A stretch of 64,000 nt of DNA from a virus (IMGVR_UViG_638276483_000001:1-64000), one strand, 5' to 3'; numbered from the stretch's first letter, positions 2,207 to 18,243 are shown. Numbers and translations: made by a program. Notes: generated by a model not told the origin, from the letters alone.

Positions 2207-2710
2207 ATGACCGAAGTATCCACATTTAAGGGCGGCCGCGCCGTAGACATCGAAATCTACGAAGACCCGCCGATCGCAGAGAGAAGCGCCGAGTGGCGCC
2301 CTGTGATGCCGCGCCGCATCCGCATCAATGGCGTGGAGTGCCTCACCCCATTGAATAGTCCCGTCCGCGTCGAAGGGCTTCTAGACGTCGACGATGAGAG
2401 GCGCGCCCAGATGGCCACCGCCACCGTCACGGTGTTTGTGCGGTCACTTCATGCACAGAGCTTAGTGGACGGACCGTTGCCCGAGTATGTACCCATTGAC
2501 GGAAAAGTGAGCGCAGCGGATCTGGTGGTCTACGATGCCGCCGGCGGTGACTGGATTCCACTCAGGCCGTTCTTCGTGCGCTTCAACGGTGTGAACTGCC
2601 TGATCGCCGACGACATCAAGATTGAGGGCCTTGGCGGCAAAGAGGGCTGCCTCACCGCCACCATCCCGTTCTTGGTGCGCACGCTCAAGGTGCACGGAGG
2701 TCAGGAATGA
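2207..2710 (+). CDS. hypothetical protein with internal duplication
   Basis: RINGVECL...ATVTVFVRSL repeated as RFNGVNCL...ATIPFLVRTL; RBS before ATG 2207. Confidence 0.7.
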   Translation: MTEVSTFKGGRAVDIEIYEDPPIAERSAEWRPVMPRRIRINGVECLTPLNSPVRVEGLLDVDDERRAQMATATVTVFVRSLHAQSLVDGPLPEYVPIDGKVSAADLVVYDAAGGDWIPLRPFFVRFNGVNCLIADDIKIEGLGGKEGCLTATIPFLVRTLKVHGGQE

Positions 2711-2970
2711 CTTACGAGAACCTCGATTGCGCCTGCAGGGCCCCGTGCCCAATCCATAGCGGAGGCTTTGGCGACGTCACCTGGGTCAACAGCTGGGCCT
2801 ACAGCTCCAGGCGGCGCGTGCGCAAGCATTTGGGCAAATGGGTGGTGCTGAACCACCCCGCCGGCAACTGCGCATTCCTCACGTGGGATGAGGCCATAAG
2901 GTACGCCAGTATCCGATACGTCATGCGGAACGACGGGGTTCTGCTCATCGCCGCCGGGGGTGGCGCGTGA
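2707..2970 (+). CDS. hypothetical protein
   Basis: ATGA overlap with upstream gene. Confidence 0.6.
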   Translation: MTYENLDCACRAPCPIHSGGFGDVTWVNSWAYSSRRRVRKHLGKWVVLNHPAGNCAFLTWDEAIRYASIRYVMRNDGVLLIAAGGGA

Positions 2971-3341
2971 TCGCCCGCTTCCGCAGATGGCTCCGTGGCC
3001 CGCTGCCGCCGCTCGAGGATGTTCTCCTCAAGGCGTGCTGGGAGCGGCTCACGAACGACACCATCACGACATATGAGTGGCCGGACCTGCACGGCAGCAT
3101 CCTTGGCGAGGTCCCCACCATATTCCCTGGCGCGGAGTTGTACTTTGCCCCGCGACTCGGCGTTGACTACACCGCCCCCTGGGTGGTTGAGAACCCCTTC
3201 GAAGACACCTCCCGTTGGACGCTCATGGGGGATGTGATGAAGCGGCGCCTCCAGCCCATGTCGGAGTTCCTCAAAGACGTTCTCGAGGATGCCGACCTAA
3301 CCCTCACCTTCAGGCGCTATGGCGAGCAAGAAGACCACTGA
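2967..3341 (+). CDS. hypothetical protein
   Basis: GTGA overlap with upstream gene. Confidence 0.6.
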   Translation: MIARFRRWLRGPLPPLEDVLLKACWERLTNDTITTYEWPDLHGSILGEVPTIFPGAELYFAPRLGVDYTAPWVVENPFEDTSRWTLMGDVMKRRLQPMSEFLKDVLEDADLTLTFRRYGEQEDH

Positions 3342-3690
3342 AAGAGGCCTCGGCTGGCACCATCAGCAAGCCGCCGACCAGCTCAAGAAGAAGCACAAAG
3401 ACGGCTCACCGTGCGATTGGTGTGGTCGGCCGATGTGGCTGGACCCAGTGATGAACTGGGACTACAACCCGGACCCTGACGCCCCGAAAAGGGGTAACGG
3501 GGTACTCCAGGCCGACCACTCCAAGCAGTCCCGTGCCGAGGCGTTGAGAAAAGGCGAGAAGGTTTTGCCGCCCGATCGCCTTTTGCATGCCGCCTGCAAC
3601 CAGCAGCGCGGGGAAGGCCACAACGATCATTTGGCGGCCAACGGAAGGGTCGCAGAAACCCTGGCCATGCCGTGGCCTTGGAAAGTCTGA
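3319..3690 (+). CDS. HNH endonuclease (terminase-associated)
   Basis: RGLGWHHQ...CDWCG...ADH...LLHAACNQQRG, upstream of terminase. Confidence 0.8.
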   Translation: MASKKTTERGLGWHHQQAADQLKKKHKDGSPCDWCGRPMWLDPVMNWDYNPDPDAPKRGNGVLQADHSKQSRAEALRKGEKVLPPDRLLHAACNQQRGEGHNDHLAANGRVAETLAMPWPWKV

Positions 3691-3748
3691 CGTTCAGTTT
3701 TATTGAACGCGCATAAATAGTGAACATGCCATCGAAAGGAAAAAAGAA

Positions 3749-3910
3749 ATGGCAGTCAAAGTTGATACTCGCGACGGATACCCCGTCACCTATGACAATG
3801 GGCTCGCCACCGAGGTTGGCGATCACGGGGATCTTGTCGTGATCGCCTCCGGCAATAGGGTGGTGGGCCGCGTGCACGCCGCCGTCTGGACGGCGGTTCA
3901 CTACTCGTGA
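3749..3910 (+). CDS. small hypothetical protein (53 aa)
   Basis: AAGGA RBS, MAVKVDTRDG..., overlaps next GTG. Confidence 0.55.
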   Translation: MAVKVDTRDGYPVTYDNGLATEVGDHGDLVVIASGNRVVGRVHAAVWTAVHYS

Positions 3911-4065
3911 CCGAGAACTTCCTCGACGGACTCATCGAGACGATGCGCGCCTACGCCGCGGAGTTGTGGGGCCACCTCTCGGACGATCTGTTCGACCCCT
4001 CGGAATGGTTCGGCGCAGGTCAAGACCAACTTTTCGACAATTCCGAAGAGTTCGAGGAGTAACCA

Positions 4066-4455
4066 ATGGCCCTAACCGAGGGCCTCGGCGCCCGCGGCGC
4101 TGAGGTCTATCAAGCTCTCACTGAAAACCGGAAGATGAACGCCGCCCAGAAGGTGATGGCGTTGAATGCCGCGCGCCTCGCCGACACCCTGGACCGCATC
4201 GAATCGGAACTCGCCTTCGCAAGTACCACGGTGATAAACAGCCAGGGCACCGAGACCATCAACCCTCTCATTTCTGAGGCGCGGATGCTTACAGGAGCGC
4301 TCTGCACAATTCTCGCCAAGATGGGCATTGCCGAATTGCCGGAGCAAAGCTCCGGAGAGAAGTCTGTCTTTGACCAGCTTGCTGCTAGACGAGCCGAGCG
4401 GCTCGCCCCTAATGGGGGTTCAGGAGCCGCGGATATGGCTAAGCCCGGAAGCTAA
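4066..4455 (+). CDS. terminase small subunit
   Basis: Position; INPLISEAR and DQLAARRAER motifs typical of actinophage TerS. Confidence 0.8.
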   Translation: MALTEGLGARGAEVYQALTENRKMNAAQKVMALNAARLADTLDRIESELAFASTTVINSQGTETINPLISEARMLTGALCTILAKMGIAELPEQSSGEKSVFDQLAARRAERLAPNGGSGAADMAKPGS

Positions 4456-6964
4456 ATCCTCTGCCGGGCAGGAAGCGATTGACCTGGCCGCCGCGTGCGG
4501 CCTCATTCTCGACCCGTGGCAGGAATTGTGCCTGCACGAGGCTCTCAAAGAGAGCGAAGAACTCGTTCAGCTGGAGTCCGGCGCCTGGGTGAAGAAGTGG
4601 GCGGCCTCCTCCTTCGGCCTGGTGGTGTCCCGCCAGAACGGCAAGGGATCGATCCTGGAGGCCCTGGAGTTGGCCGGCCTGATCCTTTTCGGGGAGCGGC
4701 TGATCATTCACTCCGCTCACGAGTTCAAGGCTCTGGCGATCGATACGCCGATCCTTTCCGAGCGCGGGTGGACCACCATGGGCGATTTGGTCGATGGCGA
4801 TCGCGTTTATGGGCCCGACGGCCAACTAACGAATGTCATCGCCCACCCGATTCGCTACGAACGCCCCTGCTACCGGCTGACGTTTGACGACGGGCAAACC
4901 ATTGTCGCCGACGAGGATCACCTTTGGACGGTTTACGACGCCGTGAAGCGGGAGCACCGCACCCTGACGGTGCGCGAACTCGTCGACGGTGGGGTCTTCA
5001 CCACCCGCCGCAATGCGGGCCGGGCCGATTCGAACATCTACCGCTACCGCGTGCCCGTTACCGAGCCCCTCGCTGGCGTCGAAGCGGACCTTCCGGTCGA
5101 CCCGTACCTGCTCGGCTACTGGCTGGGCGACGGCGACACCAATGCGGGGCGCTTCACGGTTGGCGAAGAAGACCTGGAGGCCTTCAAACTCACCCTCGAG
5201 TCGCTCGGATACGAGTACAGCGACAGCGTGGACCCGCGGACCGGTGCCCACACCATTTGCGCGTACGGATTTATCCAGGGGCTTCGCGAGGCCGGGGTTG
5301 TCGGGAATAAGCACATCCCCGAGACGTACCTAACCGCTTCGATGGAGCAGCGTCGCGCCCTCCTCGCCGGGATCATGGACTCCGACGGCGGCGTCACGGG
5401 CCACCAGATCAGTGTCACCATGAAGAACGAGGCGCTGATGCGCCAGGTCCTGATGCTAGCCCGCTCGCTGGGGTACAAGTCCTTCTTCACGTCGCATTTG
5501 TCGATGCTGAACGGCGAGCATAAGGCCCGCGTCTACCGGGTGAAGTTCGCCAATCGACAGGAGCTCAATCCGTTCCGTTTGCCGCGAAAGGCAGCGAAGG
5601 TGCTGCCGCCCCTCGGCCGCGTCACCCGGGCCCAGTACAACGCCATCGTCTCGATTGAGCCGGTGGAATCTGTCCCGACGCGGTGCATCACGGTCGACAA
5701 CGACTCCAGGCTCTACGTGGTGGGTCACGGGTTCGTCCCGACCCATAACACCGCCGTCAACGGCATGGAGCGCTTGGAATCCCTGATCGCCAAGTCGGGG
5801 CTGAAGTACAAGGCCAAGCAGGCGCACGGCGCGGAGAGCATCGAGATCCTCGACGGGCCCAACCCGGGCGCGAGGGTGATGTTCCAGACCCGTACCGACC
5901 GGTCCGGCCTGGGTTTGACCGCCGACCGCGTCATCTTCGACGAGGCGATGACCATCACCCCCGGGTCGCTGAAAGCTCTTCTGCCGACCGTTTCGTCTCG
6001 ACCCAACCCACAGATCGTTTACACCGGGACGGCGGCCGACCAGCGCACACAGCCCTACTGCCACACCTTCGGCGGCGTCCGCTACCGCGCGCTGGAGCAA
6101 CTCCGCACGGGCGAGCGTAAGCGCCTCTGCTTCCTCGAATGGTCGGCCCCCGATGACCTGCCGGAGGAGAAGTTCGGCGATCCCCAGTACTGGGCGATGG
6201 CCAACCCCGGCCTGGGTTATCGCCAGACCGAGGAGAAGATCCTCGACGAGTACGAGGAGATGTGGGCCAACCTCCGCGACTTCGGGGTGGACCGCCTCGG
6301 CATCGGTGACTGGCCGCAGTTCGGCGCTGAAATGTCGGAGATCCCACTCGACAAGTGGCGGCGACTGAACAACCCCAGCCCAGACCTCGCCGGCGCTCGC
6401 GCCCTGATCCTCTACCGCACGCCCGAGGGCGGGCCGTGGGCGATCGTGGGCTCCCAGCGCTGCACCGACGGCCGCATCCACGTGGAGGTCGGTTACGCCG
6501 GCACGGACCCCGTGGACCGCGTGGTCGACAAGTTCATCCAGGCCATCACCGCCTGGGGCCCCGAAGAGATCCTGGTGGGCCGCGGCGGCGCGGCTGAGGT
6601 GATCCCTCAGATCGAGGCCGCCGGGTTCACGGTCTACAGCCCGAACCAGTCCGAAGAGGCCCAGGCCTGCGGCGGCTTCCTGAACGACGCGCTCGTCGAC
6701 CCGGAAAACCCGCTGCTGTCCCACGGCGATCAGCATTCCCTGAACGCTGCCATCACCCGCGCTGTCAAGCGAGACCTCCCCAGCGGTGGTTTCGTCTGGG
6801 ACTGCATTGAACCAAGCACCTACGCCCAGCTCATGGGCGTCACATTGGGCCGCTGGGCGCTGCTGAAGCACGCCATCAACGCCAAGCCCACGCCCGCTAT
6901 CCACGACTGGCCCGATCAACAAGAGATCGACAGCTGGATACAAGAACTCTACGAGGAGGCTTGA
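4328..6964 (+). CDS. terminase large subunit with intein (start may be 4412)
   Basis: VSRQNGKG Walker A, VIFDEA Walker B, ANPGLG; interrupted in frame by an intein. Confidence 0.95.
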   Translation: MPNCRSKAPERSLSLTSLLLDEPSGSPLMGVQEPRIWLSPEAKSSAGQEAIDLAAACGLILDPWQELCLHEALKESEELVQLESGAWVKKWAASSFGLVVSRQNGKGSILEALELAGLILFGERLIIHSAHEFKALAIDTPILSERGWTTMGDLVDGDRVYGPDGQLTNVIAHPIRYERPCYRLTFDDGQTIVADEDHLWTVYDAVKREHRTLTVRELVDGGVFTTRRNAGRADSNIYRYRVPVTEPLAGVEADLPVDPYLLGYWLGDGDTNAGRFTVGEEDLEAFKLTLESLGYEYSDSVDPRTGAHTICAYGFIQGLREAGVVGNKHIPETYLTASMEQRRALLAGIMDSDGGVTGHQISVTMKNEALMRQVLMLARSLGYKSFFTSHLSMLNGEHKARVYRVKFANRQELNPFRLPRKAAKVLPPLGRVTRAQYNAIVSIEPVESVPTRCITVDNDSRLYVVGHGFVPTHNTAVNGMERLESLIAKSGLKYKAKQAHGAESIEILDGPNPGARVMFQTRTDRSGLGLTADRVIFDEAMTITPGSLKALLPTVSSRPNPQIVYTGTAADQRTQPYCHTFGGVRYRALEQLRTGERKRLCFLEWSAPDDLPEEKFGDPQYWAMANPGLGYRQTEEKILDEYEEMWANLRDFGVDRLGIGDWPQFGAEMSEIPLDKWRRLNNPSPDLAGARALILYRTPEGGPWAIVGSQRCTDGRIHVEVGYAGTDPVDRVVDKFIQAITAWGPEEILVGRGGAAEVIPQIEAAGFTVYSPNQSEEAQACGGFLNDALVDPENPLLSHGDQHSLNAAITRAVKRDLPSGGFVWDCIEPSTYAQLMGVTLGRWALLKHAINAKPTPAIHDWPDQQEIDSWIQELYEEA
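4730..5749 (+). mobile_element. class 3 intein with LAGLIDADG homing endonuclease (340 aa)
   Basis: HEFK|ALAIDTPI...DEDHLW...TRCITVD...VPTHN|TAV; Ala1, Trp/Cys/Thr triad; LGYWLGDG and LAGIMDSDG. Confidence 0.92.
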
Positions 6965-12706: not shown

Positions 12707-13248
12707 CCTTGCATGAAATCGGGCTGAGGCACGGCACCGACAAGGCCACCCATCACAAGTTCTGCGACTTCTATGAAGAGCACCTGCCCGGCCGAGACTT
12801 CTCGGGCCGGCTCCTGGAGATCGGCATCATGCACGGCGCCAGCCTCCGAACGTGGGCCGAGTATTACCCGAACGCCGAGATCGTGGGCATCGACACCTTC
12901 GACAAGAGCTACCTGAACCTCCCGAACAACGTCTCCGTTGTCCACGGAGACGCCACCGATCACCACGTCACGGCGCCGCTTGGGACGTTCGACATCATCG
13001 TCGACGACGGTTCGCACCTCACCAGTGACCAGCAGGTGTCGTTTCTGTGGCTGTACTACAACCAGCTCGCGGACGGCGGCATCTACATTCTCGAAGACCT
13101 TCACACATCCCTGCCCGGATACCCCGGACCCTACGTGGATAGCAAGGTCCTCCCGGTCGAAATGCTTGAGCGCCAAGGCGTCGACTTCCGGCTCTACCGC
13201 CGCGACCCTGACGAATTGGACAGCATGACGTCGGTCATCTTCAAGTAG
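12703..13248 (+). CDS. SAM-dependent methyltransferase
   Basis: GTDK, LLEIGI, FDIIVDDGSH, GGIYILED. Confidence 0.88.
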   Translation: MTLHEIGLRHGTDKATHHKFCDFYEEHLPGRDFSGRLLEIGIMHGASLRTWAEYYPNAEIVGIDTFDKSYLNLPNNVSVVHGDATDHHVTAPLGTFDIIVDDGSHLTSDQQVSFLWLYYNQLADGGIYILEDLHTSLPGYPGPYVDSKVLPVEMLERQGVDFRLYRRDPDELDSMTSVIFK

Positions 13249-13336
13249 GGGAACAATCCTAAAGAAGCTAACCGCCCTGCTTCTGCTGGGCGGTATTTTC
13301 GCATTCCTCGCGGCGCCCGCCCTCACCGATCCATGG

Positions 13337-13846
13337 GTGATCAAGACGGTTTTCAGCCGCGAGAGACCGACGGTGATGGATGAAATCGCCGAGGCCGTCA
13401 ACGACGTCGCGCAGGCCTATCCGGAGGTGCGGGGCATCGAAGTCCGCGCCGAAGCGATCGATCCACACGTCTACGGATACGCCAGGGGCGGCAAGCTCAT
13501 CATGTTCAACAAAACCTACACCAGCAACCCGGAGCGATTCCGGAAGCTGGTGGAGAACGACATCACCCTCGGGTTCCACCCGGAGTTAGGGAGATGCTCG
13601 CACGCTGAACTGCTGGCGTACCATGAGGCCGCCCATGTAATCGATCAGAAGCGGCACCTGAAGCCGCGCGTGGCGTTTGCCGAGAAGTATGGCCGCGGCG
13701 AAATCCTCCGAGGAACACTCTCCGGCTATTCCTTCACCACGGATGGGCGCCTAGCCCACGGGGAGGCCTTGGCGGAGGCTTTCGCCGCCACGCTGTGCGG
13801 CAGCGCCAACGATACGGAGCGCGACATCTTCGCGTTCTTCAACTAG
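13337..13846 (+). CDS. putative zinc metallopeptidase
   Basis: HEAAH motif followed by EALAEAF. Confidence 0.6.
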   Translation: MIKTVFSRERPTVMDEIAEAVNDVAQAYPEVRGIEVRAEAIDPHVYGYARGGKLIMFNKTYTSNPERFRKLVENDITLGFHPELGRCSHAELLAYHEAAHVIDQKRHLKPRVAFAEKYGRGEILRGTLSGYSFTTDGRLAHGEALAEAFAATLCGSANDTERDIFAFFN

Positions 13847-13855
13847 GGGAACACT

Positions 13856-14161
13856 ATGGAAGACGATACGGAAGCAATCGTCGAGGTGGCGATGGAAACC
13901 GCCGACGAGAAGGGCGTGCCGATCGTCTTGCTCGGCGGGGCGCCCAACCACCCGATTGCGGACCTACTCCGCATGAGCGGGGCCCAGTTCCTGCACGCCC
14001 AAGACATGAGCTGCACGCCGCGGGCGGTCTACATCATCGCCGAGCCGCGCTACGGCGAGTATCGCTTCGCCACGGGATCGGTCGTGCTCGACCAATTCGC
14101 CAGTATCGCCGATCAGCCCGGGGTAACGGTGCACCGCAAAGAAGTCTTGGTGGACGACTAA
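13856..14161 (+). CDS. hypothetical protein
   Basis: AGGGG RBS, in operon. Confidence 0.65.
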   Translation: MEDDTEAIVEVAMETADEKGVPIVLLGGAPNHPIADLLRMSGAQFLHAQDMSCTPRAVYIIAEPRYGEYRFATGSVVLDQFASIADQPGVTVHRKEVLVDD

Positions 14162-14207
14162 AAAACCACCGAGCCGGCGGGGGATTGGGGCGCATCGGCT
14201 CGGTGGT
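14160..14207 (-). terminator. intrinsic terminator closing the TIGR cassette (possibly bidirectional)
   Basis: accaccgagccg...cggctcggtggt stem preceded on + by an A-run (U-tract on -). Confidence 0.7.
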
Positions 14208-14215
14208 CCGTTTTA

Positions 14216-14267
14216 TCGCAACGGGCGCATCGACCATGGGTGCCGGACATGCACTGGCCCGCTGCGA
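14216..14267 (-). ncRNA. TIGR stem-loop unit U1
   Basis: Minus strand TCGCAGCGGGCCA-GTGCATGTC-CGGCACCCA-TGGTCGATG-CGCCCGTTGCGA. Confidence 0.8.
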
Positions 14268-14378
14268 AGTCTTGAGTTTTAGTGGTCGCCGGACTGAGTG
14301 TGGAAGCGTCCGGCGACCGTAACCTTCGGGCCCAGGCTTGAAATCGGTTTAATCGGGTTAACCCTCCGGCTACGTTTC

Positions 14379-14407
14379 AGTGTAGTGCAGTGTGGCCGCT
14401 TGTGCAA
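14379..14407 (-). promoter_or_regulatory. SigA-like promoter P2 for TIGR unit U1
   Basis: TTGCAC-17 nt-TACACT on minus strand. Confidence 0.65.
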
Positions 14408-14439
14408 CCCACTGCGATAGATTTTTTAGGAGACCTTGC

Positions 14440-14601
14440 ATGAGTAACGTTCGCCAGCGGATGGAGGAGTACCTTGACCAGGGTGGATTCGGCGGAGTTA
14501 AGCCTGAGCACCGGGAGGGCATGTTGGACATCTTGGAGATGTTCGGCAACATCGTCCGCGAGGACTGGGACTCCTGGTCCGAGTATCTCAAGGGGGTTTA
14601 G
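14440..14601 (+). CDS. small hypothetical protein (53 aa) inside TIGR cassette
   Basis: AGGAG RBS; MSNVRQRMEEYLDQGGFGG... Confidence 0.65.
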   Translation: MSNVRQRMEEYLDQGGFGGVKPEHREGMLDILEMFGNIVREDWDSWSEYLKGV

Positions 14602-14774
14602 GTTCACCGGCCGCGGAGCCTTCTTGGGTGTCGCGGGGGATATGGCGACCGGTGAACCGTTCACGACTAGGCGTGTAGCTTTTGGGCGTCGACCGTGCGG
14701 CAGGCCCAGTCGCGAGGTTTAATGCCGCCGGGCGCGTCTGCCTTGGGTGTCGAGCCTCCTCTGGCCCGGCGGCA
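14601..14774 (-). ncRNA. TIGR stem-loop array, units U2-U4
   Basis: Hairpins 14601-14658, 14661-14715, 14723-14774, each with loop repeat CGAC(A/G)CCCA between two ~9-nt spacers. Confidence 0.88.
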
Positions 14775-14780
14775 AGTCTT

Positions 14781-15554
14781 TCATGCGGCCTGCGGAAGCT
14801 CCACGGCCTCGTGGAGCCGCTTCGACTCGCGCCACAAATCTCTCAGGATCTCTTTGCCCATCTTCCGCAGCGCCCGAGCGTGCTTGTGGCCATCGGACAG
14901 GGGGGACCCCGCCAGAGCGGGCTTACCCTTCGGGCCGCACCGTACGCAATCCTTGCCGTGTACCGCGTTGGCGTATTGCTCCTTCGCTGCATAGTAGACG
15001 TCGGCGTAATGCCCTTGGGCCTTGAGGCAGGCCCCGGTAATGTTCCACAGGCGCATCCGCGCCACGTCGTTCCAGTTGCCCTGGACACCTTTCATGTGCC
15101 GCGGCGCGGCGCCGTTGACCACGTGATAACCGCAGTAGGCCCACAGCTCGGAGACGGTGCGCGGCCGATCGTACGGCACCATGACCGGATCGCCGTTTTT
15201 GTCTTTCTCGCCCGTCTCATAGAACCCGCTATGCCAGTACGGGTCGCCCGTCTTGGCGAGTAGCCGGCCAGCTTGCTTGTAGCCGATGCCTTTTTGCGCG
15301 GTGATCCAATCCCCGAGGGGGTGGGCTTTCACGGAGCGCTCAAGATTCTTGATCATCGACTTTTCGCGCTCTTGGAGTTGCTCGACGTGGGCGCGCACCT
15401 GGATAACAGTCGGGTCGTCTTCGCGCAGTCCGTAGCCGTTGTTTTCTGTGTCGGTCAGTGACCGGAGGCGGTTTTCTGCGGCGATGCGGATGTCCTCGAT
15501 GTCGTCGAGGAGTTCGGCAAGAATGCCGATGTTCGTGGTGCTGAAGGGTTTCAT
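14781..15554 (-). CDS. Nop-domain TIGR-associated protein (TasA-like, no RuvC/HNH)
   Basis: Coiled coil RIAAENRL; KGIG...AGRLLA; SELWAYCG; GNWN..AR..LW; HARALRKMGKEILRDLW, the IS110/Nop C-terminal signature; no DEDD domain; flanked by dual-spacer arrays. Confidence 0.85.
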   Translation of the reverse strand: MKPFSTTNIGILAELLDDIEDIRIAAENRLRSLTDTENNGYGLREDDPTVIQVRAHVEQLQEREKSMIKNLERSVKAHPLGDWITAQKGIGYKQAGRLLAKTGDPYWHSGFYETGEKDKNGDPVMVPYDRPRTVSELWAYCGYHVVNGAAPRHMKGVQGNWNDVARMRLWNITGACLKAQGHYADVYYAAKEQYANAVHGKDCVRCGPKGKPALAGSPLSDGHKHARALRKMGKEILRDLWRESKRLHEAVELPQAA

Positions 15555-15575
15555 GGGTTTCTCTTTTCTCTGGGG

Positions 15576-15802
15576 TTCACCCCCCGGCGTTACCCAATAG
15601 GGTTCCGATAGAGAAATGGCCGAGCGGTGAAGTTTGGTTGACGGGGCGGGTGAACATTGGGTGTCGAAGATCAGTTGACCCCGTCAGGTTTGGTTGCCGC
15701 CCGCGGTACAGCTTTGGGTGTCGAGTCTGGCCTGGCCCGGCGGCAAGTTTGATGCGGCGGGCGAGGATGCCCTGGGTGTCGGACGCGCAATAGCCCGCCG
15801 CA
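15576..15802 (-). ncRNA. TIGR stem-loop array, units U5-U8
   Basis: Hairpins 15576-15631, 15639-15686, 15694-15746, 15753-15802 with the same 9+9 nt architecture. Confidence 0.9.
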
Positions 15803-15808
15803 AATCTG

Positions 15809-16309
15809 TTATTCGACCGGGCCGCTCAGTTCGCCGACGGTCTCCACATTCTCAAGCTCCATCTTGGCCAGTACGCGGGCCCAGTAATCAGCATCGGCGT
15901 TCGCAGCTTCAGCGGCCATGCGCCGGGACTCGATCAGGAACTTCACGTCATCGTGATTCAACTCTTTGATGATGACATAGCCACGGTCGGTCCCTATCTG
16001 CTTCTCCAGGAACTTCGCCCACGGGTTTTCTTCCGCATAAGCCTTGGTGCGATTTGATTTGTTTGCCTTCCCGCTGCGCACGGCCCCGCCGCCAGCTCGA
16101 CGCACATCGTTGAGCGCGGCATTTCGCTCATTGCCGATGAAGATGCGGATCTGCGGGGGGAGTGACTTGATGAAGAAGTCGCGAATCAAATGGTCGGGGG
16201 TGGCGTCGGCCACCTTCTCGGCCAATTCCCAGACGTCGGTGACGTCGGGGTTGTCGGCGATCACCTCTCGGATGGCGTCGTTGAGCGTGATTTCAGTTGC
16301 TGCGGTCAT
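15809..16309 (-). CDS. TIGR-cassette accessory protein of unknown function (166 aa)
   Basis: MTAATEITL...; shares a 17-nt leader with the tas gene; lies between arrays. Confidence 0.8.
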   Translation of the reverse strand: MTAATEITLNDAIREVIADNPDVTDVWELAEKVADATPDHLIRDFFIKSLPPQIRIFIGNERNAALNDVRRAGGGAVRSGKANKSNRTKAYAEENPWAKFLEKQIGTDRGYVIIKELNHDDVKFLIESRRMAAEAANADADYWARVLAKMELENVETVGELSGPVE

Positions 16310-16334
16310 GCGTTTCTCTTTTCTCTGGCTGGTT

Positions 16335-16568
16335 TTCACCGGCGGCGCTTGTAGCTTGGGTGTCGGGAACTCTCTGGCCGCCGGTGAAGCTTGGTCGCAG
16401 CGGGCGAGGAAGTTTTGGGTGTCGCCGCAACCTTGGCCCGCTGCGAAGCTTGGTGCCGGGGCGGCCCGAAGATGGGTGTCGCGTCGGATTTGGCCCCGGC
16501 AAATCTGTGGAGTTGTAACGCGGCGGGCGGGACTTCCTTGGGGGTCGAGAACCCGTTGGCCCGCCGCG
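16335..16568 (-). ncRNA. TIGR stem-loop array, units U9-U12
   Basis: Hairpins 16335-16388, 16395-16446, 16454-16501, 16519-16568. Confidence 0.9.
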
Positions 16569-16576
16569 ATGCCCCA

Positions 16577-16605
16577 ACCCTACCGCAGTGCGCTGGGCGG
16601 CGCAA
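16577..16605 (-). promoter_or_regulatory. SigA-like promoter P1 for the TIGR-Tas cassette
   Basis: TTGCGC-17 nt-TAGGGT; predicted start site ~16570 abuts the first unit. Confidence 0.65.
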
Positions 16606-16695
16606 TACACTGCGATGAACTTTTTCTTAAACTACCCGGGACCGAGGTTGACCTGGACTTTTCGACCTCAGCACACAAGCAAGGGGAACTGCTTC

Positions 16696-17424
16696 GTGCG
16701 AATCATCGGCATGTTGAGCTGGTATCAAGAGCCCGTTTCATGGCTCGCCGAGTGCGTGTCGGCGCTCTCCAAGATTTCCGACCACGTCGTCGCGGTTGAT
16801 GGGCCCTACTGGGGCTTCCCCGGCGCCGTGTTGAAGCCCGCCAGCGGCCCCGAACAGGCCGACGTCATCGCCCGCACCGCGGCCGGACTGGGTATGGGCT
16901 GCACCATCCATGCCCCACGCAAGCCCTGGTCGGGCCCAAACGGCGGCGAGGTCGCCAAGCGCGACTGGATGATGCAGGCCGCGATGCTGGTCGCAGAGCC
17001 GGGCGATTGGCTGCTGCGCGTGGACGCCGACGAGGTGTTCACCGCCGTCCCGGGTGACGTAAAGCAGCGCCTAGCCGAAACCGACAAGCACGTCGCCGAA
17101 GTAATGCTCTGGGAGCGCGAGGCCGAGGATTCCGTCAATCGAGTGGTCGATGTCGGCGACGACTACGAATCACCGCTGCGCTGCCTGTTCCGCGCAATCC
17201 CCGGCATCCGCATCGAGGGCGCGCACTTCGTTGTCTCCGCCCCCGTGGAGGGCGAGCGGAGATTCCTCGTCGGTCACAATACGGTGCCCGCAGAGTCCTT
17301 GTGGGATGTCCGCCTGGAGCACCGCACCCGACTTCGTTCACCCGGCCGCAAGCGCCTGAAGAACGAATACAGCCCACTGATCAATCAATTCGAGAAGGTC
17401 GAGGATACGCCTCGCAATGACTAG
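16696..17424 (+). CDS. glycosyltransferase (GT2-like)
   Basis: VVAVDG, DWLLRVDADE; AAGGGG RBS before GTG. Confidence 0.8.
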   Translation: MRIIGMLSWYQEPVSWLAECVSALSKISDHVVAVDGPYWGFPGAVLKPASGPEQADVIARTAAGLGMGCTIHAPRKPWSGPNGGEVAKRDWMMQAAMLVAEPGDWLLRVDADEVFTAVPGDVKQRLAETDKHVAEVMLWEREAEDSVNRVVDVGDDYESPLRCLFRAIPGIRIEGAHFVVSAPVEGERRFLVGHNTVPAESLWDVRLEHRTRLRSPGRKRLKNEYSPLINQFEKVEDTPRND

Positions 17425-17674
17425 CCCTATTCGAGATATCAAAGCAGATTACATCGCCGCGCTCCTGGCTGAGCGCGCCTCCTACTTGAGCGCCGGCCGC
17501 GCCGATCGCGCCGACGATGTTGCCGCCGAGCTCGCCCGAATGGGCCACGAGGTTCGGCCCGCCAAGCGGCCCGCGCCGGAACCCGTGGAGCGCGCCGTTG
17601 CCGACGAGCCGCTCGAGCAGGCCGTCGAAGCCGCTCCTAAGCGCCGCCGCGGGCGGCCCCCGAAAGGTGAGTGA
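17417..17674 (+). CDS. hypothetical virion-region protein
   Basis: In operon; C-terminal KRRRGRPPK. Confidence 0.7.
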   Translation: MTSPIRDIKADYIAALLAERASYLSAGRADRADDVAAELARMGHEVRPAKRPAPEPVERAVADEPLEQAVEAAPKRRRGRPPKGE

Positions 17675-18243
17675 TGGCTGAGGAGCTAACCCCCGAAGAT
17701 GTAGACACCTACACCCAGGGTCGGATCGACAAAGATGACCCTGAGACCGCACGCGCCCTCGCCGCCGCACTGTCTCGCGCTCGTAGAGCTTGCGGCTGGC
17801 ACGTCACCCCCGTCGTGGAGAGCACGGTTCGACTGCACGGCAGCGGCCACGACTTCATCGTCCTGCCGACGCTGAAACCTGTTGAGCTGCTCTCCATCAC
17901 GGAAGACGGCGAAGAGGTGGACCTTGATGAGGTCTACTTCGTCTCCCGGGAGCCCGGCGTGCTCTATAAGAAGTGCGGCTGGTGGTGCCGCGGGCCCATT
18001 GAGGTCACGCTCACCCACGGCTTCACCGCCGAGGAGGCTGGGGACTTCCGCGAGGTTGTTTTGCAGGCCGTGGATGTCGCCAACCTGATGGTCGGCACCG
18101 GCGCCACGGGCCCCATCACCGGCCTGGAAGTTGACGATGTCAACATGCGCTGGTCGGGCCTCGTGGACCGCAGCTGGGGCATCGCCAAGAACCCCATGCT
18201 GGAGTCGGTCCTCTACCAGTACCGGCTGGTGGCGATCGCGTGA
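17671..18243 (+). CDS. head-to-tail adaptor
   Basis: ARRACGWHVTP, VTLTHGF motifs; position. Confidence 0.85.
   Translation: MMAEELTPEDVDTYTQGRIDKDDPETARALAAALSRARRACGWHVTPVVESTVRLHGSGHDFIVLPTLKPVELLSITEDGEEVDLDEVYFVSREPGVLYKKCGWWCRGPIEVTLTHGFTAEEAGDFREVVLQAVDVANLMVGTGATGPITGLEVDDVNMRWSGLVDRSWGIAKNPMLESVLYQYRLVAIA

Follow-up and report, generated by a model that had tools for sequence, protein, structure and literature searches.

The stretch analysed here, which we call the window, comprises 64,000 nucleotides (IMGVR_UViG_638276483_000001:1-64000), at the start of a phage genome of 110,865 bp, and its flanks are 94-96% identical to Cluster J (Omegavirus) M. smegmatis phages such as Courthouse, MiaZeal and LittleE. 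Within it we studied a minus-strand locus in which twelve short hairpin units are arranged around a gene for a 257-aa Nop-domain protein. Read along the minus strand, a promoter-like site (P1) is followed by units 1-4, a gene for a 166-aa protein, units 5-8, the 257-aa gene and units 9-11; then come a doubtful 53-aa open reading frame (ORF) on the opposite strand, a second promoter-like site (P2), an 11-bp hairpin, unit 12 and a terminator. We conclude with high confidence that a temperate mycobacteriophage of Cluster J here encodes a stem-loop TIGR array together with its effector, a TasA without nuclease. A phage-encoded TIGR-Tas-like system had been proposed in a preliminary description of the window, and that reading is supported by the tigRNA anatomy of the units, by the match of the protein to the family NF052498 and by its Tas fold. 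What we consider established here is the anatomy of the units, the TasA fold, the link between units and tas genes across the family, and the turnover of spacers on a fixed scaffold.

Twelve hairpin units surround tasA

The same description had reported twelve hairpins in four groups. All 12 were found again on the minus strand, and the coordinates of the groups are unchanged. The units are listed here together with the effector gene; bit scores and E values are those of a covariance model built from the units, and the cassette that holds units 1-11 is described further below.

14217..14266, minus strand: tigRNA unit 12 (outside the cassette), spacers GTGCATGTC / TGGTCGATG, 57.0 bits, E 5e-12
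14605..14654, minus strand: tigRNA unit 11, spacers TATCCCCCG / AGAAGGCTC, 51 bits
14663..14712, minus strand: tigRNA unit 10 (variant), loop CGACGCCCA, two G-U pairs in the stem, 25.7 bits, E 1.1e-4
14724..14773, minus strand: tigRNA unit 9, spacers GAGGAGGCT / AGGCAGACG, 60 bits
14781..15554, minus strand: tasA, 257 aa, coiled coil and Nop domain, no nuclease domain
15579..15628, minus strand: tigRNA unit 8 (degenerate), loop CGGAACCCT, 33.5 bits, followed by the tasA leader
15638..15687, minus strand: tigRNA unit 7, box C is TCA, 49.1 bits
15695..15744, minus strand: tigRNA unit 6, 29.7 bits
15753..15802, minus strand: tigRNA unit 5, box C is CTA, 55.9 bits
16337..16386, minus strand: tigRNA unit 4, 46.6 bits, followed by the leader of the 166-aa gene
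16396..16445, minus strand: tigRNA unit 3, spacers AGGTTGCGG / AAACTTCCT, 56.9 bits
16453..16502, minus strand: tigRNA unit 2, 37.7 bits
16519..16568, minus strand: tigRNA unit 1, loop CGACCCCCA, 57.5 bits

On the minus strand the units, which lie between 14217 and 16568, have the form stem-CCA-N9-CGACACCCA-N9-CG-stem, with a variable paired stem of 9-11 bp. When the core CCA-N9-CGACACCCA-N9-CG was searched for with up to three mismatches, the window returned 41 matches, a number reached by none of 100 shuffles (mean 12.7, largest 22). Twelve of the 41 fall on the minus strand between 14226 and 16559 (six exact, four with one mismatch and two with three) and form the only cluster, which includes all six exact matches; the remaining 29 are scattered and carry 2-3 mismatches each. 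The covariance model, run with its filters off, recovered all 12 units at E values of 1e-12 to 1.1e-4, and the next best match between 12000 and 19000 had an E value of 0.15. No thirteenth unit was found in the 110,865-bp genome, where the sole other site with at most one mismatch (109402, plus strand) lacks a flanking stem, and Rfam returned no family at E <=1.

The stems differ from unit to unit and still pair, as the preliminary description had claimed: 88.6% of the stem cells are paired, against 65.2 +/- 3.1% in shuffles (none of 500 reached the observed value), both sides change in 8/10 stem pairs, and when the 3' partner is slid by 1-3 columns the pairing falls to 33-53%. In a 32-nt frame all twelve units read with 9-nt spacers. 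CCA occupies 9/12 of the edge positions, with CTA, TCA and CTG/CCT as variants, and 11/12 of the loop positions, and box D is CG at 24/24. The proposed minus-strand pattern is kept by 10/12 units, which have both boxes within one base, the loop and a paired stem. Of the two variants, unit 8 has a degenerate loop, and unit 10 has a box C that is shifted by one base and can be read as CCT with 10 nt or as CTG with 9 nt. The trinucleotide CTT is found at the stem base of 6/12 window units and of 44/149 units from other loci, against a background of 3.1%; it is thus enriched rather than universal. All twelve units lie on the tasA strand, at most 1.1 kb from tasA, and the locus has the published anatomy of stem-loop tigRNAs, namely two 9-nt spacers, each flanked by a box C (CCA) and a box D-like dinucleotide, variable palindromic stems and the strand of the tas gene.

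The 257-aa protein has a Tas fold and no nuclease domain

The 257-aa protein matched the NCBIfam model NF052498 ('TIGR-Tas system RNA-guided endonuclease') with 216.7 bits over residues 10-244, well above the cut-off of 100, and the IS110 model NF033542 with only 14.2 bits over residues 50-105, against a cut-off of 140. Among proteins of the PDB, phmmer found TasR (9mty, 1.7e-13) and TasH (3.3e-7), and no Pfam family, including the nuclease, DEDD and IS110 domains, was matched at E <=1. An AF2 model made with 42 aligned relatives was of high confidence (pLDDT 94.5, pTM 0.87). With this model Foldseek returned 9mty_A first (3.9e-9, TM 0.64), followed by eight TasH chains (3e-7 to 4e-6), then the IS110-family structures 9t56 (9e-4) and 8wt9, in the range of 9e-4 to 1e-2, and last the Nop5 chain 1nt2_B (probability 1.00 over 100 columns). 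The chain opens with a coiled-coil helix at residues 7-34, and because it begins directly there it has no N-terminal nuclease domain; judged by its modelled fold, the protein is the TasA form. The earlier proposal of a Nop-fold protein without RuvC thus stands: the profile and structure comparisons with Tas, Nop5 and IS110 proteins place TasR and TasH closest and reveal no nuclease domain.

The tasA frame is intact, and all 31 invariant family positions of alignment A1 are present by construction. Only 10 residues follow the last position aligned with TasH (247 of 257), compared with about 74 in TasH itself (280 of 354); with so short a tail, the C-terminal Tyr/His processing loop of dual-repeat Tas proteins is probably absent.

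The preliminary description had also warned that a homology search would label this protein an IS110 transposase. This is true of PHROG, where its family (4285) is named 'transposase', of several RefSeq phage records and of a paper from 2013, but not of NCBIfam, which names the family correctly.

Two further features of the protein were observed. His199, Cys203, Cys206 and His223 are invariant among the 42 TasA relatives and His225 is kept in at least 90% of them, and the CxxC stretch within this region (residues 199-225) has no counterpart in the alignments of TasR and TasH; these residues may form a zinc site special to this actinophage clade. About 17 extra residues, roughly 110-126 (FYETGEKDKNGDPVMVP), occur in the window protein and in its closest relatives P0003 and P0005, within a modelled pair of strands (107-117 and 123-131), while most other relatives shown in the alignment lack them. 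On the model, this insertion may be a wedge or another element that contacts the guide.

Tas genes of other phages are accompanied by the same kind of unit

The Tas family is large, with 1504 of 2587 candidate proteins matching at E <=1e-3. The closest relatives of the window protein (P0002-P0005) are 68-86% identical to it, and NCBI already gives the name 'TIGR-Tas system RNA-guided endonuclease' to one relative at 48% identity; scans of metagenomes and viral sequences for TasA relatives returned none above 51% identity. A relative is encoded in 89 phage records, in all of them at less than 60% identity, and 81/89 of these are Mycobacterium phages. Those Mycobacterium phages with genomes of 48-54 kb are all Subcluster A-like among the matches listed.

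A first covariance scan covered 80 IMG/VR tas loci, the phage BPBiebs31 and the window, and gave 283 matches at E <=0.1. After 13 near-duplicates had been dropped, a second scan of 67 of the 80 IMG/VR loci found 149 units at E <=1e-3 in 46/67 loci, every one of them (149/149) on the strand of tas, with 112 upstream of the gene and 37 within or past it. Conservation in these units is 97-99% at box C and box D, whereas at the spacer columns the commonest base accounts for only 28-45%; stem pairing is 98.5%, and 10/10 pairs change on both sides, in an alignment that was fitted to the model and is biased towards it. The enrichment of CTT at the stem base is in line with the CUU processing motif described by Xu 2026 (bioRxiv 10.64898/2026.09.09.750476).

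Some of the matches lie inside longer tas genes of IMG/VR (L041 3391-3450, L019 3448-3507, L025 3385-3444, L029 3382-3441, L056 3403-3462 and L057 3361-3420), in agreement with the intragenic tigRNAs that the same preprint reports. In the Subcluster A phage BPBiebs31 (L002 654-3690) one strand carries, in this order, the repressor, a hypothetical gene, a superinfection-immunity gene, two small genes, a homologue of the 166-aa gene, four or five hairpin units and tas, and the system of this phage therefore lies in the immunity region.

A lone guide varies in its spacers across Cluster J

Unit 12 lies outside the cassette and is shared by related phages that lack the cassette. Among the Cluster J records that match 14150-14445, 49/49 cover both the terminator and unit 12, and each of 13 relatives that we fetched has exactly one covariance-model match, at the position of unit 12. 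In five whole genomes of relatives there was no other unit (5/5) and no Tas protein (0/5 at E <=1), while the window genome, used as positive control, gave 2.6e-115.

The scaffold of this lone unit is nearly fixed. Its stem, CGCAGCG(G/A)G...CCCGCTGCG, is that of unit 3 and is the same in 13/13 relatives save at the G/A position; in the window the 5' arm equals that of unit 3 and the 3' arm differs by one base, which gives a G-U pair. The upstream GACTT and both boxes are invariant in 13/13 relatives, and the loop is CGACACCCA in 10/13 and CGACCCCCA or CGCTCCCCA in the other three. The spacer pairs, in contrast, form five alleles in the 13 relatives, to which the window adds a sixth (6 alleles in 14 phages). 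Between the window and Courthouse only 5/18 spacer positions of unit 12 are identical, compared with 241/250 positions of the surrounding homologous stretch (Fisher p 8e-13). Spacer turnover on conserved repeats in related phages, which the preliminary description had named as a test of its reading, is thus what we observe at this unit. The whole small locus, with a promoter-like site and inverted repeat, a leader block, the hairpin, the unit and the terminator, is kept across the cluster, including relatives at about 72% identity.

In three of the alleles spacer B (TGGCCCGC followed by C or T) is complementary to the 5' stem of its own unit plus CCA. In Ariel, Constella, Optimus and Thibault (lone-unit loci L088 462-521, L091 464-523, L093 463-522 and L094 464-523) spacer B reads TGGCCCGCT or TGGCCCGCC, complementary to CCA together with the end of the unit's own 5' stem; it resembles a duplicate of the 3' arm, and an alternative, longer hairpin is possible. 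From their sequences, these three alleles may fold differently or be degenerate.

A guide in a phage without Tas would be either a leftover that keeps being rewritten or the partner of a TasA supplied in trans. We also considered a joint reading in which the lone guide works in trans through the TasA of a co-resident or co-infecting phage with the cognate cassette, of which the present phage would be an example, as piracy or as a decoy that soaks up the TasA of a rival, in which its spacer pairs are exchanged as alleles under diversifying selection, and in which a mobile cassette inserts precisely at the promoter of the lone guide, between the copies of CACTGCGAT. Taken as a whole, this combination is speculative and we hold it to be rather unlikely.

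The remaining units and tasA lie on a cassette that was gained or lost

The segment that separates the window from its relatives has the following boundaries.

14419..16616, strand not assigned: cassette of about 2.2 kb, from blastn against Courthouse, with units 1-11, tasA, the 166-aa gene, the 53-aa plus-strand ORF and P1
14410..14418, plus strand: left copy of the 9-bp direct repeat CACTGCGAT, cassette boundary
16608..16616, plus strand: right copy of the 9-bp direct repeat CACTGCGAT, cassette boundary

By blastn, positions 13238-14427 of the window correspond to 2239-3429 of the Courthouse locus (L001) and positions 16600-18000 to 3404-4804. Since Courthouse is collinear with both flanks and continuous across them, the window holds about 2.2 kb of extra sequence. 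At its empty site Courthouse carries the repeat once, as CACTGTGAT; 49 related Cluster J records lack the cassette, and in 14 records only its flanks are matched. Each copy of CACTGCGAT is the right half of an inverted repeat, GCAGTG-N17-CACTGC, which overlaps a promoter-like TTGCNC-N17-TANNNT. The cassette is an indel with a 9-bp repeat at each end, and it sits where the resident lone guide gene has its promoter.

An insertion at the same place is described by Pope et al. 2013 (PMC3706429) for the Cluster J phage Omega and read there as an unusual IS110-like transposon. According to that paper, LittleE and Courthouse lack the insertion, the 5 bp CACTG are duplicated and there are no terminal inverted repeats; its gene product gp21 shares 51% identity with Subcluster A1 homologues. 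The window cassette agrees with the Omega insertion in three features, namely its absence from Courthouse, the CACTG duplication and the identity of its TasA to a Subcluster A1 homologue, which is likewise 51% for the protein of BPBiebs31.

Promoter-like sites, leaders and terminator

The candidate control elements of the locus are listed below.

16577..16605, minus strand: P1 promoter-like site TTGCGC-N17-TAGGGT, found by eye, inside the inverted repeat 16585-16613
14379..14407, minus strand: P2 promoter-like site TTGCAC-N17-TACACT, found by eye, inside the inverted repeat GCAGTG-N17-CACTGC at 14387-14415
14166..14207, minus strand: terminator hairpin CCACCGAGCCG ... CGGCTCGGTGG followed by TTTTTT, at the end of the minus-strand guide transcript

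From P1, transcription would run through units 1-4 and the 166-aa gene, then units 5-8 and tasA, and finally units 9-11; P2 would serve the 11-bp hairpin and unit 12. The inverted repeat occurs twice in the window, where 0.05 would be expected, and nowhere else in the genome; it was not enriched in other tas loci (8 occurrences against about 10 expected). Both the P2 site with its repeat and the stems of the terminator are conserved in 10/10 aligned Cluster J loci. Of the promoters and terminator in the same orientation that the preliminary description had listed, the terminator was found by a scan (minus-strand match 14180-14166, plus-strand match 14193-14205), but the promoters are weak matches found by eye and absent from a strict scan. 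A T-rich tail on the plus strand also trails the terminator hairpin, downstream of a plus-strand gene.

An identical purine-rich leader of 17 nt, CCAGAGAAAAGAGAAAC, precedes tasA and the 166-aa gene (15555-15585 and 16310-16340, minus strand), both times right behind the last unit of a sub-array of four. This arrangement suggests that a module of four units, leader and gene was duplicated.

No target was found in the phage itself or in its closest cassette-less relative

The target predicted for a guide is 5'-[spacer A][reverse complement of spacer B]-3', an arrangement derived from the reported 8-nt 3' overhangs and cut rule. We searched with the 12 spacer pairs and five alleles of the lone unit, also in the alternative arrangement (reverse complement of A, then B), with gaps of 0-2 and alongside 4-6 control arrangements. 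In the phage's own genome (110,865 bp) the predicted arrangement had no match at two or fewer mismatches and two matches at three, and six control arrangements had 0-1 at two mismatches and 2-7 at three. In the whole Courthouse genome and in 130 loci it had none at one mismatch or fewer, and the counts at 2-3 mismatches equalled those of the controls. The only exact matches, in the alternative arrangement, lie within the lone unit, as three alleles have a spacer B that complements CCA and the 5' stem of their own unit. No guide matches the empty insertion site.

An exact scan of IMG/VR with six predicted targets returned 3, 4, 0, 6, 2 and 1 stretches, counts that have no control pattern behind them. 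Of the 16 stretches, seven lie in contigs with a G+C content of 41-50% and none (0/16) resembles the window genome; three regions of high G+C were checked and had no mycobacteriophage relative. For unit 3, four of the six stretches are copies of one site, an exact target with a 1-nt gap and identical flanks (L208 9874-9892, L209 5227-5245, L210 6421-6439 and L213 5748-5766). The four contigs are related, come from different samples and have 65-66% G+C, and the region of the site has no relative among 50,697 phage records; going by their sequences, they would count as one independent site, and chance is a possible source of it. The search of bacterial genomes was made for unit 12 only, in 151 genomes of one mycobacterial genus among which the laboratory host species may not be included. 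It found the target at one mismatch or fewer in one genome, where the reversed-pattern control found none and about 1.3 were estimated by chance.

With no match for the 12 guides in the phage itself or in the closest relative without the cassette, their most likely targets are other phages, mobile elements or host genes.

Alternative explanations

Several results weigh against a working TIGR-TasA system. Only half of the window units have CTT at the stem base, units 8 and 10 are degenerate, and box D is CG instead of the UG of the solved TasR complex; moreover, a strict sigma-70 scan of 13800-16900 returned no promoter, and the target searches in the phage genome, in Courthouse and in the 130 loci did no better than their controls. 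The degenerate units, the failure of the searches to find a target and the 49 related records without the cassette would also suit a decaying or inert relic, in which the cassette is disused and its hairpins merely persist. We consider this very unlikely, as the tasA frame is intact (with the 31 invariant positions noted above, which are present by construction), 10/12 units keep their boxes within one base, their loop and their paired stems, and the scaffold of the lone unit is nearly invariant even in phages whose flanks are only about 72% identical. Self-regulation, in which the guides would repress genes of the phage itself such as a lysis-lysogeny or late-gene switch, would fit the position of the cassette inside the late operon, its promoter-like sites with an operator-like inverted repeat and the ability of TasA systems to repress transcription (Xu 2026, bioRxiv 10.64898/2026.09.09.750476); since the predicted arrangement matches the own genome no better than six controls do, we regard it as extremely improbable.

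The published view of the Omega segment leads to another explanation, by which the 257-aa protein is the transposase of an IS110-family transposon and the 2.2-kb segment an insertion sequence. The absence from Courthouse, the copies of CACTGCGAT at both ends, the 51% identity to the BPBiebs31 protein and the 'transposase' label of PHROG 4285 all agree with it. The protein itself does not: its score with NF033542 is about a tenth of the cut-off and confined to residues 50-105, no DEDD or IS110 domain of Pfam is found at E <=1, the chain starts at the coiled coil and lacks the RuvC-like catalytic domain, and solved Tas proteins are much closer in fold than IS110 recombinases. Moreover, there are twelve guide units where IS110 would be expected to have one bridge RNA, and the best match of any guide to the empty insertion site has 6 mismatches, the commonest value among 200 random windows. 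A transposon of this family is thus highly improbable. The indel is real and the protein has no catalytic domain, so the cassette was gained or lost by means that the 257-aa protein does not encode; for the Omega-type segment, 'transposase' is to be replaced by TasA for the same reason, and the indel still stands.

Proposed mode of action and relation to known systems

For the stem-loop TIGR-TasA system that we favour, by analogy with PlTasA and MbTasA, minus-strand transcripts would start at P1 (~16600) and P2 (~14400), end at the terminator (14166-14207) and be cut near the stem bases, which are enriched in CUU, by an enzyme other than TasA. A TasA dimer would then bind each hairpin at its box C (CCA) and box D (here CG), spacers A and B would pair with opposite strands of an 18-bp site, and the bound complex, having no nuclease, would keep the target from being transcribed or replicated. 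The system would be a moron-like cassette that is read in the direction opposite to the late operon. The locus is antisense within that operon, carries promoter-like sites of its own that include an operator-like repeat and, in Subcluster A, has immunity genes as neighbours; this position suggests that it is expressed from the prophage and serves in defence or competition.

According to Faure 2025 (PMC12045711), stem-loop arrays with TasA are organised in sub-arrays, are processed to single-hairpin RNAs and occur mostly in phages, a point for which a review of mycobacteriophages is cited. The same source describes box C and box D and tandem-spacer targeting, in which one DNA strand is recognised by spacer A, the opposite strand of the neighbouring 9 bp is recognised by spacer B, and gaps of 1-2 bp are tolerated, as well as TasParB-associated TIGR-TasA loci with a ParB-like partner gene in an operon with tasA. 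Xu 2026 (bioRxiv 10.64898/2026.09.09.750476) catalogues 2,559 stem-loop arrays and reports a CUU motif at the stem base, as well as guide-dependent, reversible repression of transcription by TasA and dead TasR. Structures of PlTasA are given by Guan et al. 2026 (bioRxiv 10.64898/2026.08.11.744272).

The published stem-loop TasA systems (PlTasA from a Peromyscus leucopus gut contig, BlTasA and MbTasA) share with the window a solo protein of coiled coil and Nop domain, two spacers of ~9 nt per hairpin with box C (CCA) and box D, variable palindromic stems, sub-arrays on both sides of tas that are split by genes, an enrichment of CUU at the stem base (in the window at half of the units) and a phage host. 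The window differs from them in its box D (CG, not UG), its fixed 9-mer loop CGACACCCA, a conserved 166-aa partner between sub-arrays, one unit located beyond the cassette and served by a separate promoter-like site and terminator, and its setting in a cultured, engineerable mycobacteriophage. Measured against what PMC12045711 and bioRxiv 10.64898/2026.09.09.750476 describe, the system belongs to the published stem-loop TIGR-TasA class and these differences are minor.

The dual-repeat systems TaTasR and SpTasH (PDB 9mty, 9vzx, 21kl and 9w02-9w04) likewise combine Nop domain and coiled coil with tandem-spacer guides; the window TasA, unlike them, has no RuvC or HNH domain, has stem-loop guides in place of their 36-nt dual-repeat RNAs, and has a short C-terminal tail. 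IS110/IS621 (PDB 8wt6, 8wt9 and 9t56) has a related RNA-binding domain (Foldseek 9e-4 to 1e-2), and it shares the historical annotation of the family as transposase and an indel with a short repeat at both ends, but the window protein lacks the DEDD/RuvC catalytic domain, and its locus has twelve guides against one two-loop bridge RNA. The archaeal box C/D small ribonucleoprotein (Nop5-fibrillarin-L7Ae, PDB 1nt2) resembles the system described here in its Nop fold, its two guide segments and its box C/D-like anchors; the latter has no fibrillarin, L7Ae or K-turn, and its target would be DNA, as in the TIGR papers, not rRNA.

Faure 2025 (PMC12045711) describes the natural targets and role of TIGR-Tas, and of TasA above all, as unknown, since most of the loci are metagenomic. 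A complete TasA system with 12 guides in a temperate phage of M. smegmatis makes this role accessible to plating, RNA and binding experiments, with cassette-less close relatives, a variable lone guide, thousands of sequenced phages of the same host and standard phage engineering at hand. TIGR-TasA was first described in 2025; the present copy occurs in a phage and host that are easy to work with, alongside natural relatives lacking the cassette and a lone guide that varies, and so makes TasA biology testable. In addition, a segment published as an IS110-like transposon is reinterpreted, and a conserved 166-aa partner without a known fold is flagged.

The partner gene and other features of the locus

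The remaining features are as follows.

15809..16309, minus strand: 166-aa tas-associated gene (PHROG 4604, function unknown), mostly helical
14440..14601, plus strand: 53-aa ORF from the ORF list, within the cassette, doubtful as a gene
14284..14318, minus strand: 11-bp hairpin with a 13-nt loop, GCTTCCACACTCA, between the P2-like site and unit 12, read from the sequence

A HMMER scan with the 166-aa protein found 67 representative clusters at E <=1e-3, of ~100-215 aa with one of 418 aa. By tblastn (22-31% identity, a range at which more were likely missed), a homologue is located just upstream of tas, with units between the two genes, in 18/117 tas loci. The model of the protein (pLDDT 88.9) is mostly helical, with a long C-terminal helix. 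It matched no Pfam or NCBIfam family and no PDB sequence or profile below E 0.16, and a fold search of the PDB gave at best a Foldseek E value of 1.7 and a VIA Z of 4.9, the latter for a single helix only. No ParB was among its matches, in searches that were weak.

The 53-aa ORF had no homologue but itself in the protein collection and none in the 130 loci, and its longer frame of 69 aa (14392-14601) matched nothing in Pfam or PHROG.

The loop motif GCTTCCACRC(A)TCA of the hairpin at 14284-14318 is kept across the aligned Cluster J loci, and its stems differ yet pair (GGTCGCCGGAC/GTCCGGCGACC versus GGCCCGCCGGGG/CCCCGGCGGGCC), with ~27 extra bases in a distant subgroup. On the other strand, a plus-strand coding sequence of 45-60 aa that is annotated in Cluster J between gp19 and the glycosyltransferase gene overlaps the lone unit. 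It corresponds to Courthouse gp20 (L001 3186-3323) and to 'hypothetical protein' entries in further records (L084-L090 and L092). Because its most variable codons are the two spacers, this coding sequence is probably not a protein gene.

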